IMG/VR virus record: IMGVR_UViG_2654587726_000001 | Origin: a virus | Lineage: Monodnaviria > Loebvirae > Hofneiviricota > Faserviricetes > Tubulavirales > Inoviridae | DNA length: 7,878 nt | Direction: 5' to 3' (one strand) | Part shown: one piece after another, positions 1 through 7,878 of the stretch | Layout of the letters: each line of letters begins with the position of its first letter | Position numbering within the stretch: the first letter of the stretch is position 1 | Made by a program: the position numbers and the translations under genes | Notes under the pieces: generated by a model | Databases searched by the model: none | What the model was told of the DNA's origin: nothing | The model's input: only the letters and a program-made list of their open reading frames with translations

Positions 1-123
1 GTCGGAGATACCAAGCCGCTGCGCTGCCATCTGTGTTGTCAGACGCCGGTCGATGACGTCCTGAATAATCTTGAGTCGGTTAACTTCATCCAAAGTGAAA
101 AACTCCGCTGCGAGAGCCGTCAT
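1..123 (-). CDS. Partial CDS, N-terminal 41 aa only (gene continues beyond window start); HTH-type protein, possibly the N-terminus of an IS transposase
   Basis: Reverse complement of 1-123 reads MTALAAEFFTLDEVNRLKIIQDVIDRRLTTQMAAQRLGISD with ATG at 123-121 and an AAGGA Shine-Dalgarno about 5 nt upstream on the minus strand. The LT..MAAQRLGIS pattern resembles HTH N-termini of some IS transposases (ISNCY/IS1202-like) from memory; not verified. Confidence 0.4.
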   Translation of the reverse strand, partial: MTALAAEFFTLDEVNRLKIIQDVIDRRLTTQMAAQRLGISD

Positions 124-203
124 GGTAATCCTTACTTGATTATACACGCCGGACATCTTAACTTAGCCCAAGGCGGACATTACAACTTTGCTGTTACAAT
201 ATT

Positions 204-236
204 GGTGCACATAATGTGACACGCGTTATGTTGAAA
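204..236. other. dif-like Xer recombination site with atypical 11-bp spacer; putative prophage attachment junction
   Basis: GGTGCACATAA (204-214) matches the XerC arm of E. coli dif GGTGCGCATAA at 10/11; TTATGTTGAAA (226-236) matches the XerD arm TTATGTTAAAT at 9/11; the spacer TGTGACACGCG is 11 bp instead of 6. Sits at the boundary between the flank and phage-like DNA. Confidence 0.4.
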
Positions 237-273
237 AGGCCGCTGCGATACTTTCCACCGCAGCGGCCTTTTT
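234..273. terminator. Strong stem-loop (14-bp perfect stem, 11-nt loop) flanked by A-run and T-run; candidate bidirectional terminator or structured att/origin element
   Basis: AAAAGGCCGCTGCG (234-247), loop ATACTTTCCAC, CGCAGCGGCCTTTT (259-272), followed by T. Perfect inverted repeat read directly from the sequence; overlaps the right arm of the dif-like site. Confidence 0.45.
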
Positions 274-306
274 ATACATAACGCCATTGTGCGCACTGTT
301 GTGTAT

Positions 307-420
307 TCAGTCGTTGCTTCTGTTGATTTTATTGTGTGCCCTCAGGACGATTGGCAACACTATTGTTATGACGCTGAACAAAAACATGCCGAACAGACTA
401 CCGGCAATCAGGTATTTCAT
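307..420 (-). CDS. Hypothetical small hydrophobic peptide (37 aa; possible 46-aa form from ATG at 447)
   Basis: Minus-strand ORF MKYLIAGSLFGMFLFSVITIVLPIVLRAHNKINRSND: one predicted transmembrane helix followed by a basic tail. No convincing Shine-Dalgarno; below the ORF-track size cutoff; a competing short plus-strand ORF exists at 368-463. Weak support. Confidence 0.2.
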   Translation of the reverse strand: MKYLIAGSLFGMFLFSVITIVLPIVLRAHNKINRSND

Positions 421-5247: not shown

Positions 5248-5264
5248 TAATCAGGTGGTGAATT

Positions 5265-5552
5265 ATGTTTGCCATTTTTATTGCTGCAATAAATACTGCT
5301 CTTGGTTTTATTTTTCGTACTGCACTCATTAAGTTTGTAATGTTCTCTGCAATTTATATTATGGTTGTAGAAGTTCTTCCGTTGATTGTGACTCATCTTC
5401 CTGATGGTAGCAGTATTTCCTCGCTTTTTTCAGAGTTGCCTTCTTCTGTTTTGTGGTTTCTTAATCTGATGTCTTTTGATGTTGTTTTGCCCATGATGGT
5501 TTCAGCCATGTTTACGCGTTTCTTTATACGCCGCATTCCATTCTTTAATTAA
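5265..5552 (+). CDS. pVI-like minor coat membrane protein
   Basis: 95-aa very hydrophobic ORF directly after the pIII-like gene, AGGTGGTGA Shine-Dalgarno; position and hydropathy match gVI. Confidence 0.6.
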
Positions 5553-5563
5553 GAGGGTGATTT

Positions 5564-6622
5564 ATGGCTATTACTGCATATATTGGCGTGCCGGGTTCTG
5601 GCAAATCTTATGAAGTGGTTAAGTCTGTTATTATTCCGGCTGTTGCATCCGGCCGAAGGATTGTCTCAAATATATACGGACTGAATCATGAGGCAATCAT
5701 TCAGTATTGTTATAAAAACAAACTGATAAGTGATGATATTTCACCAGGTGAAATCATTCATGTTGAAAATGAGCGGGTTATGTCCCCTGATTTTTATCCG
5801 GTTAAGGGAAATCAGGATAAATCACTCTGCCAGCCAGGTGATTTAATTATTCTCGATGAGTGTCATCGTTTTTTTACATCAGATAAAGCTTTGTCATCTG
5901 ATGCCCGTATCTTTGCTGCCGAGCATCGCCATTATGCTGATGAAAAAACGGGGCAAACCTGCGACCTTGTTCTTATTAATCAGGCATTGACAACGTTGCC
6001 TCGCTTTCTTCGTGAGCGTATTGAGCAGACTTTCAGAATGAAAAAACTGATTGGTCTTTCTCATAAAAGTTATCGCGTTGATGTTTTCGACGGTTCCAGA
6101 ACCACAAAGGCAACGCATCTTTCAAATTATGTCTGCCGTTACAGTAAAGATATTTACCCGCTTTACAGCTCTCATGATGTTAAGGGAGCGGTGGAAACAA
6201 GAACTGACGCAAGGGCGGTTTTGTTTAAACCGCAGGTTATTCTTTTGTTTATTTTTCTTATATTGCTTTCTGTTTATCTCTTCTTTAGTTTTCTTTTGCC
6301 TTTTTTTAATCCGCAGAAAAAAACAGAACAGGCACAGCAGTCAGCGCCGTTACGTTCTTCGCCGTCTTCGCCGTCGGTTAATGTTTCGCCTTCACCGGAG
6401 AATAAAACCGCTCCTGCTCCTTCTCAAAAGTGGTGCGTAATAGGGCGTTTTAATGACGGGGACCGGAACTATGTTTTTCTGCGCGATACGGATAATCGCC
6501 TTCGTATGGTTTCCGCAAATAAATTCAGGGGGCTGAATATTATGCTTGAGGGAGAGGTGGACGGCGTGAAGGTTGTTGCATGGTCCTGTAATAATCCGGT
6601 TTCTTTCAGGGGGCAAAAATGA
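5564..6622 (+). CDS. pI / Zot-family morphogenesis (assembly) ATPase
   Basis: 352 aa; N-terminal Walker [10 protein letters not shown], Walker B-like [11 protein letters not shown], one internal transmembrane segment [24 protein letters not shown], Pro/Ser-rich periplasmic tail. Recognisable Zot/pI family pattern. Stop overlaps pIV start (ATGA at 6619-6622). Confidence 0.9.
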
Positions 6623-7878
6623 AACTGATCACCGTATTCTTTTCATTTGTGCTTTTATCATTTTTTTCTCCGGCTTATGCCGTTTCAGAAAGTGAGGCAC
6701 GACGTGTGGAGATGTCAATGGACAATGCGCCTTTACCTCAGGTTATCAGCATGGTCTGGCAACGGGTTTTTAATCGCCCTTATCAGTTGTCGCCGGATAT
6801 TGCAGGAGACACAAGACTTGTCAGTTTCTATCTGAGTAAAAATCAGGAGCCGCGAAGCTTTTTTATTTCATACCTTAAACGCCTGAATATCAGCGTCACG
6901 TCGATGAAGGATGGCGTGGATTACATTTCAGTGATAAAGCAGACTGAGCAGAAAGTGCCTGATGTGGTTTTTACTTATCGCCCTAAATACCGCAGCGTGA
7001 GTTATTTATCGGCAATGCTTAACTCTGTGGTTTCTTCCGGGGCTTTCAGTAATCATATTCAGTCCGTCGATTATTTGTCTGGCGGTGTGTCAGGTATAAC
7101 CACGACAGACAGTGCATCGACGCGTATGTCGATCGCAACGGATGCCGAAGTGCTGGTTTATTCCGGTCCGGCAGCATCCGTCCGGCAGATAGAAAAAATA
7201 CTGCCGCGTATTGACGTTCCGGCAGAGCAGGTAACGGTGAGCGGCTATGTTCTTGAAGTCCAGACGACAGACCGCAATGCAACCGGACTGCAAATTATTG
7301 CTGATTTGTTCCGTAATAAACTGGGGATGTCTGTGGGGGCTCGTCTTGATGGGGGTAATTCGTTTACGCTGAATGTTGGAGGGCTGAATGCGTTTTACAG
7401 TCTGATCAAAGAGGATTCACGCTTTAATGTCGTGAGTAATCCGCGTCTTACGGTGCTTTCCGGCAGTAAGTCGCAGTTTACTGTGGGTCAGGAAGTTCCG
7501 GTGCTGGACAGTGTCAGCTATCAGGGCAGCAGCGGAACGCCAGTCCAGTCTGTGACATACAGGAACAGCGGGGCGATTTTTACAGTAACGCCGGTTGTGC
7601 TTGACGGACTGATAACACTGGATATCAGCCAGCAACTGAGCGATTTTGTAAAGACAACGACAGGCGTTAACTCCAGCCCGACACTGACGAAGCGGGAAAT
7701 CAGCACAAAGGTTGATGTTAAGGACGGTGAATTACTTGTGCTTGGTGGCCTTGCCAGCAGTAAGCTGACGCAGTCGCGGACAGGTTTTTCATTTTTGCCG
7801 GGTTTTACAGGCAAATCAGACGAGAATAACCGGACGGATATAATTGTGGTGCTTCAGGCTCGCAGGGTTGGCAAATGA
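6619..7878 (+). CDS. pIV secretin (phage export outer-membrane channel)
   Basis: 419 aa; signal peptide [21 protein letters not shown]; C-terminal region [27 protein letters not shown]...[11 protein letters not shown] closely parallels the conserved secretin C-terminus of Ff pIV. AGGGGG Shine-Dalgarno; stop codon is the last 3 bases of the window. Confidence 0.9.

Follow-up and report, generated by a model that had tools for sequence, protein, structure and literature searches.

The DNA analyzed here, called the window throughout, is the 7,878-nucleotide (nt) IMG/VR virus record IMGVR_UViG_2654587726_000001, and it carries a nearly whole filamentous phage of Escherichia coli inserted at the chromosomal dif site. 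We conclude with good confidence that bases 204 to 7878 are an intact temperate phage of the Inoviridae, present as a prophage, with the integration, replication, and assembly scheme and the mosaic placement proposed below. In the E. coli strain E700025, two tandem copies of the same element, each 7,934 bp long, are found immediately behind hipBA, and a regenerated dif comes after them. Measured against this repeat unit, bases 204 to 7878 account for 7,675 bp (97%) and include all genes. The window ends exactly at the stop codon of the secretin gene and is without only a 257-bp noncoding tail, in which the phage's own XerC arm is located. Its first 198 bases are the end of an insertion sequence (IS) of the IS1202/ISNCY family and not phage DNA, and bases 199 to 203 are a 5-bp spacer. 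The initial annotation had read the whole window as a near-complete inovirus prophage with its own secretin; the near completeness, the inovirus character, and the secretin all stand, and the span is to be shortened by the IS end and the spacer.

The inovirus assignment is based on profile matches to the replication initiator (Rep), coat protein, pIII-like protein, DUF2523/pVI, Zot/pI, and secretin. Features by which Inoviridae are recognized are thus present: a pI/Zot-type assembly ATPase with a membrane span, a coat protein with pIII- and pVI-like minor proteins in the conserved order, and a rolling-circle replication initiator (PF02486; RstA homologue). A six-frame listing of open reading frames (ORFs) displays a co-oriented plus-strand gene block from about base 1139 to base 7878 and a small divergent ORF at 789 to 1004, and all prophage ORFs are intact. 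The plus strand is rich in T and G throughout (T>A and G>C on the coding strand), and its cumulative GC skew climbs monotonically; such a skew is expected for the (+) strand of an inovirus. A megablast search of the window against 50,697 phage records gave no match, and blastn against phage records aligned just short segments, which lie in rstR, Rep, the pIII repeat, and the start of zot.

Insertion at dif is documented by junction sequences. In complete E. coli genomes, the same element, from about window base 195 to 205 up to 7878, adjoins hipA/dif at 98.6 to 100% identity. At bases 204 to 217, the window reads GGTGCACATAATGT, the XerC arm of E. coli dif plus TGT with one mismatch, which confirms the dif-like junction suspected earlier. 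The mismatch is at base 209: the attL XerC arm is GGTGCACATAA in the window and GGTGCGCATAA both in E. coli dif and in the E700025 attL, and the phage's own XerC arm reads AGTGCGCATAA. In E700025, attL is GGTGCGCATAATGT/GACACGCG... (in a longer reading, GGTGCGCATAATGT/GACACGCGTTATGTTGAAAAGG), the copy-to-copy junction, which equals attP, is AGTGCGCATAATGTGACACGCG..., and attR is AGTGCGCATAATGT/ATATTATGTTAAAT, a regenerated dif. These sequences therefore place the crossover within the XerC arm and the first three bases of the central region (TGT). Insertion leaves the host XerC arm at attL and restores a working dif at attR. The XerC-side crossover with a hybrid attL and a functional dif at attR, a feature of CTXphi-type integrative mobile elements exploiting Xer (IMEX), is thus present in E700025; the window itself contains attL only, and, as expected for such a view, no intact 28-bp dif was found within it. 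All dif prophages that we compared have the same orientation relative to hipA-dif.

The attachment site also points to the form of DNA that is integrated. In duplex DNA, its XerC- and XerD-like arms are separated by 11 bp rather than 6. A second dif-like site, inverted and starting ∼40 nt on from the first, occupies bases 276 to 297 and pairs with bases 204 to 236 in single-stranded (+) DNA. As single-stranded DNA (ssDNA), attP folds into one long hairpin of −43.7 kcal/mol, compared with −14.4 ± 2.6 kcal/mol for shuffled sequences (z = −11.4; 0 of 200 shuffles). In the folded attP, the XerC and XerD arms become duplex and correctly apposed, and six top-strand bases (TGACAC) bulge out, so that the spacing between the arms is restored only on folding. 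We aligned the hairpins of 8 att sites from six E. coli strains, which represent at least five different dif prophages. No stem position changes among them, and differences occur solely in the bulge, the apical loop, and the internal loop; the central-region segment (bases 215 to 225) is the only stem-internal part that varies between phage lineages.

A folded pair of inverted dif-like sites serving as the XerCD substrate defines CTXphi-type IMEX (PMC5357621), and both sites, with their intrastrand pairing, are present in the window. The same CTX-type integration architecture has been proposed for YpfPhi (PMC4266046). The hairpin with its inverted dif-like sites, its conservation, and the shared orientation therefore favor integration of folded (+) ssDNA by XerC-catalyzed exchange, and we infer single-strand, CTXphi-type integration by the host XerCD recombinases. 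According to this scheme, the packaged (+) strand would be the plus strand of the window; bases 204 to 236 and 276 to 297 would fold into a hairpin mimicking a dif duplex; host XerC would swap one pair of strands with dif at the boundary between the XerC arm and TGT; and replication would fix the insertion. The predicted outcome is a hybrid, nonfunctional attL and a working dif regenerated at attR.

Integration of the VGJphi type would differ in that the double-stranded replicative form enters through a single dif-like attP and stays excisable by XerCD, the hairpin being a terminator or a packaging signal. The duplex junction AGTGCGCATAATGT does retain a good XerC arm and 3 nt of central-region homology, and the 14-bp G+C stem followed by a T run resembles a bidirectional terminator. 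However, the spacing between the XerC arm and the XerD-like arm in the duplex is 11 bp and not 6 to 7 bp, and the XerC' and XerD' sequences at 276 to 297 would be without a role in a duplex attP, yet they have been kept in five otherwise divergent lineages in which the bulge and the loops vary. Moreover, the z score of −11.4 comes from the extended hairpin and not from the G+C tip alone. We consider this route unlikely and retain single-strand integration as the preferred reading.

The hairpin module (bases 204 to 298) is also found by itself on large plasmids, at 96.8% identity in Citrobacter youngae and at 85.9% in Klebsiella, where one record has it in four places. These plasmid copies suggest Xer-exploiting elements at plasmid sites. 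A search of Rfam returned a single match (E = 0.86), in which the attP hairpin was mistaken for a Bacillus small RNA; nothing meaningful was recovered.

Table 1. Attachment-site elements, genes, and other features of the window
Coordinates	Strand	Feature	Evidence and remarks
204..214	+	attL XerC-binding arm GGTGCACATAA	Host derived; one G>A relative to E. coli dif; compared with the E700025 attL and intact dif sites
215..225	+	Top-strand "central region" TGTGACACGCG	First 3 nt (TGT) in common with dif, the crossover zone; the rest bulges (TGACAC) when folded
226..236	+	XerD-arm-like TTATGTTGAAA	9/11 to dif TTATGTTAAAT; direct reading
234..272	+	Hairpin tip: perfect 14-bp G+C-rich stem (234-247/259-272) with 11-nt loop	100% complementary inverted repeat; fold
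276..297	+	Second, inverted dif-like site: ACATAA (XerD'), CGCCA, TTGTGCGCACT (XerC')	Minus-strand dif match at 284-297; inverted repeat; fold
307..447	-	46-aa hydrophobic ORF in accessory position beside attL; uncertain whether a real gene	ORF listing
480..788		Noncoding G+C-rich region	Pieces recur in small plasmids; hairpins at 680-703 and 710-734
789..1004	-	71-aa repressor, RstR-allele homologue	68% aa identity over 56 aa to RstR of Vibrio phage pre-CTX KR063268
1065..1116	+	Divergent control region	Palindrome GCGCATGCG twice (1065-1073, 1108-1116) around TTTACA-18-TATGAT (1076-1105)
1139..1336	+	65-aa ORF conserved ahead of Rep; stop overlaps Rep start	phrog_3104, 8.4e-25; WP_000017776.1
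1336..2532	+	Rolling-circle replication initiator, RstA homologue (Rep_trans)	PF02486, 1.8e-21; phrog_453, 5.6e-107
2542..2877	+	111-aa ORF in gene V/rstB position	phrog_14411, 1e-47
2882..3055	+	57-aa ORF with hydrophobic C-terminal half, in pVII/pIX position	Sequence; not annotated in RefSeq
3058..3306	+	Major coat protein precursor (pVIII-like), 82 aa	phrog_2186 "virion structural protein," 2.9e-14; phrog_6548 "major coat protein," 1.1e-3
3441..3611	+	56-aa hydrophilic ORF between coat and adsorption genes	Conserved; only a weak HTH_40 match, below cutoff
3616..5247	+	pIII-like adsorption protein, 543 aa	phrog_7187, 3.3e-23, residues 393-542
4657..4886	+	18-nt tandem repeat, 12.2 copies, encoding the pIII (GSGTGT)n linker	Length varies between strains
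5265..5552	+	pVI-like minor coat protein (DUF2523)	PF10734, 2.9e-9; phrog_974, 4.3e-19
5564..6622	+	pI/Zot assembly ATPase; Walker A GVPGSGKS; one membrane span	PF05707, 1.3e-22; phrog_197, 2e-76
6619..7878	+	pIV secretin, own outer-membrane channel; complete	PF00263, 1.9e-25, and PF03958 (Secretin_N); phrog_1012 "protein IV of M13," 1.8e-116

The repressor gene and control region of the prophage are homologous to the immunity region of CTXphi. The repressor gene has ∼70% nucleotide identity to rstR in several records of CTXphi and of Vibrio anguillarum phages, and the rstR-rstA intergenic spacer of pre-CTX is visibly homologous to the control region of the window. The 71-amino-acid (aa) repressor had no match in Pfam; its sequence pattern makes a ribbon-helix-helix fold likely. 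In the control region, two copies of the palindrome GCGCATGCG were found where 0.04 would be expected (0 of 200 shuffles), and the promoter-like element between them points toward the Rep operon. The two palindromes are candidate operators. During lysogeny, the RstR-like repressor encoded on the minus strand would shut the divergent Rep promoter, probably by binding to them. Rep is 33% identical to CTXphi RstA across 95% of its length. This RstA-type protein would start rolling-circle synthesis of the (+) strand, probably, as with CTXphi, best from tandem copies; a tandem pair is what was observed in E700025.

Functions of the remaining left-end features are less firmly assigned. The 111-aa ORF, presumed from its position to encode an ssDNA-binding or replication accessory protein, had no match in Pfam or NCBIfam, has no similarity to RstB, and has only 7 homologue clusters. 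A profile search of PDB sequences with this ORF found no match, and its AlphaFold (AF2) model was discarded (pLDDT, 40.7). Pieces of the noncoding region at 480 to 788 occur at 77 to 95% identity in rolling-circle/RepL plasmids of 2 to 2.8 kb from E. coli, E. albertii, Salmonella, and Citrobacter and also in E. coli plasmids of ∼100 kb. This sharing with small rolling-circle plasmids suggests a candidate complementary-strand (single-strand) origin, a Rep origin, or both, and the region may hold a signal for single-strand initiation common to replicons with ssDNA intermediates. When bases 500 to 780 were folded as ssDNA, they were not clearly better than shuffled sequences (z = −1.2 to −2.7). 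The 46-aa ORF beside attL had no family match; a small minus-strand coding sequence is annotated at the equivalent place in strains E24377A and TD225-C4 and not in E700025.

The morphogenesis genes form a full set. The coat protein precursor has a signal peptide, an acidic N terminus, a hydrophobic core, and a basic C terminus, and its match to Pfam Phage_Coat_B was below the cutoff. The pIII-like protein begins with a signal peptide and an orphan N-terminal region of ∼345 aa, which a Gly/Ser/Thr linker connects to a conserved, membrane-anchored C-terminal domain. Homologues of the N-terminal 345 aa were found in E. coli only. Matches of this protein in the PDB ran via the low-complexity linker only. 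For the same query interval, the prophage spans between 7,652 and 7,695 bp, depending on the strain; the variation probably reflects a changed repeat number in the linker of the adsorption protein. The 57-aa ORF ahead of the coat gene had no family match and is a candidate minor coat protein by its position. The secretin is 100% identical to WP_000767691.1. Production of virions is predicted from these genes: the filament would consist of pVIII, pIII, pVI, and the products of the small ORFs, and the coated ssDNA would leave the cell by way of pI/Zot and the pIV secretin that the phage itself encodes. Neither a toxin gene nor other obvious cargo is evident in the element.

The relationship to CTXphi and pre-CTXphi (Affertcholeramvirus) is restricted to parts of the genome. 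The repressor, the homologous control region, and Rep correspond to an RS2-like module, and the attachment site follows the CTX-type plan, with an inverted dif-like pair folding in (+) ssDNA, an XerC-side crossover, and a restored dif at attR. The hairpin is shorter, at ∼95 nt with ∼40 nt between the sites, whereas that of CTXphi is ∼150 nt with 90 nt between them (PMC5357621). The window encodes its own secretin, and the pre-CTX record has none. CTXphi is exported via the host EpsD. The window has no toxin genes, the 111-aa ORF is unlike RstB, and the host is E. coli, not V. cholerae. The core of Affertcholeramvirus is composed of cep, orfU, ace, and zot with no secretin; the window shares similarity with this genus in the rstR/rstA region only. 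Its Zot matches the general Zot-like profile (phrog_197, 2e-76) far better than the CTXphi-type profile (phrog_1041, 3.7e-10), and V. cholerae CTXphi has no record among the Zot matches listed. The initial annotation had set the window apart from CTX-type phages; this contrast holds for the secretin and fails for the type of integration site and the replication module, both of which are CTXphi-like.

The initial annotation had likened the prophage to the CUS-1/Ypf class and left it undecided whether it is one of those phages or a new relative. CUS-1 and YpfPhi are 99% identical to each other at the nucleotide level over 7.1 kb (PMC4266046). As a comparator of this type, we used a prophage in E. 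coli TUM13773, the Zot of which is 98% identical to that encoded at the Y. pestis locus; the next ORF at that locus is a secretin of 414 aa. Proteins of the different prophages were compared pairwise. The likeness is real. Both types are inserted at dif in the same orientation, occur as tandem copies, and encode their own secretin, and they have a common gene order: accessory ORFs, minus-strand repressor, Rep, small ORFs, coat, pIII, DUF2523, Zot, and secretin. The attP hairpin modules, with two inverted dif-like sites around a G+C stem, are homologous, so that dif integration through an inverted pair of XerC/XerD sites is common to both. At the protein level, however, identity is 38% for Zot, 39% for pIV, and 25% for pIII, the last over the C-terminal ∼100 aa only. 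Rep belongs to the Rep_trans/RstA family here and to the II/X family in CUS-1/YpfPhi, with no similarity between them; the repressor is a 71-aa RstR-like protein here and a 148-aa helix-turn-helix (HTH) protein there; the two types carry different accessory ORFs; and the unit length is 7.9 kb here and 8.7 kb there. Megablast and blastn of the window against the CUS-1/YpfPhi type gave no match beyond stretches of ∼100 nt, far from near identity over a core of ∼7.1 kb. Site, gene order, secretin, and hairpin could have suggested that the window is CUS-1/YpfPhi itself, the prophage of E. coli O18:K1:H7 and Yersinia pestis, or a variant of it at the strain level. Given the low Zot, pIV, and pIII identities and the unrelated Rep, obtained with a comparator validated by the Y. 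pestis Zot, this idea is refuted for practical purposes, and the window is a distinct relative.

A second candidate is the UPPhi group of Lineavirus-like phages related to IKe and I2-2, which are the other dif-integrating inoviruses so far described from Enterobacterales. UPPhi is integrated at dif in tandem in E. coli, is 7.6 kb long, and has accessory ORFs beside dif; the covered genes of UPPhi901 match IKe/I2-2 at ∼70% aa identity, and for genes II and V its identity to YpfPhi is >85% (PMC7307601). Tandem insertion at dif in E. coli, a similar size (7.6 versus 7.9 kb), and accessory ORFs next to dif would fit membership of the window in this group, and all of these phages are enterobacterial with a full Ff-like gene set including pIV. 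The sequences themselves leave membership very improbable. BLASTP of the window pI against IKe pI gave no significant match, and the identity of pIV to its IKe counterpart is 28% and limited to the C-terminal 258 aa. Rep has no relationship to the CUS-1/Ypf gene II, which UPPhi resembles, so that the replication module differs as well, and Lineavirus is absent from the 142 phage records matched by Zot. By the published criteria, ∼70% core identity to IKe/I2-2 and YpfPhi-like genes II and V, the window is set apart from the UPPhi group.

Other relatives are no closer. Among deposited phage genomes, the best Zot matches were to uncultured gut inoviruses (Inovirus D_HF5_61 and Dulem virus 52/53), with 35 to 39.5% identity over 97 to 99% of the protein; these are no closer than CUS-1/YpfPhi and have no nucleotide similarity to the window beyond 117 nt. 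In a search with one genome per species, the nearest Zot outside E. coli (56%) was on a 3-kb contig of a metagenome-assembled genome; the remaining ones, in Pasteurellaceae and other Enterobacterales, were at most 51% identical (a partial match) and mostly 46% or less. These sequence comparisons place the prophage in a lineage of its own, apart from CUS-1/YpfPhi and UPPhi, with a genome that is a three-part mosaic: the shared attP hairpin module, an immunity and replication module like RS2 of CTXphi, and a morphogenesis module ∼38 to 39% identical to that of CUS-1/YpfPhi.

To describe the distribution of the element, we used megablast against complete E. coli genomes: 15 of 5,426 carry it (≥80% coverage, 98.6 to 100% identity). 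Copies come from isolates from Pakistan and Japan and from strain series such as RIVM, AST, and JNE; the carriers include E700025 and the O166:H15 strain JNE21-003. In IMG/VR, ten viral contigs encode a Zot that is 96 to 100% identical. The element is thus already catalogued computationally in IMG/VR and as yet unnamed; no paper describing it was found in the literature. The Zot-pIV segment by itself is more widespread, with ≥80% of it present in 27 genomes and 28 records at ≥99% identity.

Parts of the element are joined to other modules elsewhere. In E. coli E600003, the morphogenesis half (window bases 2876 to 7878) is present at 99.4% identity at a non-dif site between hcxB and ybiB, linked to genes for an IS110-family transposase, a 668-aa replication endonuclease, and phospholipase D; one virion module therefore serves two different integration and replication systems. 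Conversely, enterotoxigenic E. coli E24377A has the half from attP through the repressor and Rep to the 111-aa ORF (window bases 199 to 2867) at dif with 95% identity, joined to a different set of coat, pIII, Zot, and secretin genes. At least three more, mutually different, secretin-encoding inovirus prophages are found in E. coli XSLGL-2, A28, and TD225-C4, in tandem at dif and with the same attP cassette. One of them has a HigA-like antitoxin gene and one a 666-aa replication endonuclease, and the two tandem copies in XSLGL-2 differ in the accessory genes beside attP.

These observations bear on whether the prophage is alive. A dead remnant, fixed at dif and unable to make phage, could account for the absence of any episomal, plasmid-like circular record in PLSDB, for the IS inserted 5 bp from attL, and for the point change in the attL XerC arm. 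The IS, however, falls outside the phage; all ORFs are intact, and bases 202 to 7878 are 100% identical to a tandem copy in E700025. Copies 98.6 to 100% identical are present in isolates from Pakistan, Japan, and other strain series, and recombination of the modules with other replication or morphogenesis modules in other strains implies recent activity. A remnant is therefore improbable, in our estimate, and an intact temperate phage remains the preferred reading.

Several points nevertheless weigh against that reading. Virions, the replicative form, and Xer dependence are predictions from the sequence, and no episomal form was found in PLSDB. The window displays only attL, its right end and copy number lying outside. 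The hairpin stems are too conserved for compensatory changes, so that the fold is backed by the conservation pattern and the energy, not by covariation, and duplex integration of the VGJphi type through the same XerC arm and TGT keeps, as a rival, the small probability that we gave it. The ssDNA-binding protein and the pVII/pIX equivalents were assigned by position. Finally, the G>A change at base 209 could be a mutation in a disused site or a sequencing error.

We put forward only tentatively, as possible rather than probable, that this is an active, E. coli-confined inovirus lineage, mainly of human stool and diarrheal isolates, which trades whole modules with other inoviruses of E. coli, one variant having an IS110-type transposase in place of Xer/dif integration, and which exchanged its immunity region (repressor, operators, and Rep promoter) fairly recently with CTXphi/pre-CTXphi of Vibrio. 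If true, this would mean cross-genus traffic of immunity cassettes, and possibly cross-immunity, between relatives of the cholera phage and phages of gut E. coli.

Filamentous phages integrated at dif can alter the fitness and virulence of their hosts, as with CTXphi, YpfPhi, and CUS-1. The element described here is a real but ordinary member of this known class, a third and unnamed E. coli lineage beside CUS-1 and UPPhi; as it carries neither a toxin gene nor other obvious cargo, its direct relevance to medicine is unproven. Its attP hairpin cassette of ∼95 nt serves at least five otherwise different E. coli inoviruses, and its immunity/replication cassette is clearly related to that of the cholera toxin phage. 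It could be used as a convenient system in E. coli for studying CTX-type single-strand integration and the exchange of modules among inoviruses.

The adjoining IS is represented by its right end, which encodes the N terminus of a transposase on the minus strand (start at base 123) and stops at base 198, 5 bp from the XerC arm. Targeting of dif and pdif has been published for the IS1202/ISNCY family and matches this 5-bp distance (PMC10132070). In E. coli B19374 and A25, the same IS end is next to an intact dif; the IS of B19374 appears to be a unit of ∼3.6 kb with two passenger genes, one of which encodes an S-4TM pore-forming effector. On pT16R-1, the same IS end adjoins a plasmid Xer site, GGTACATATAA-CGAGGA-TTATGTTAAAT.

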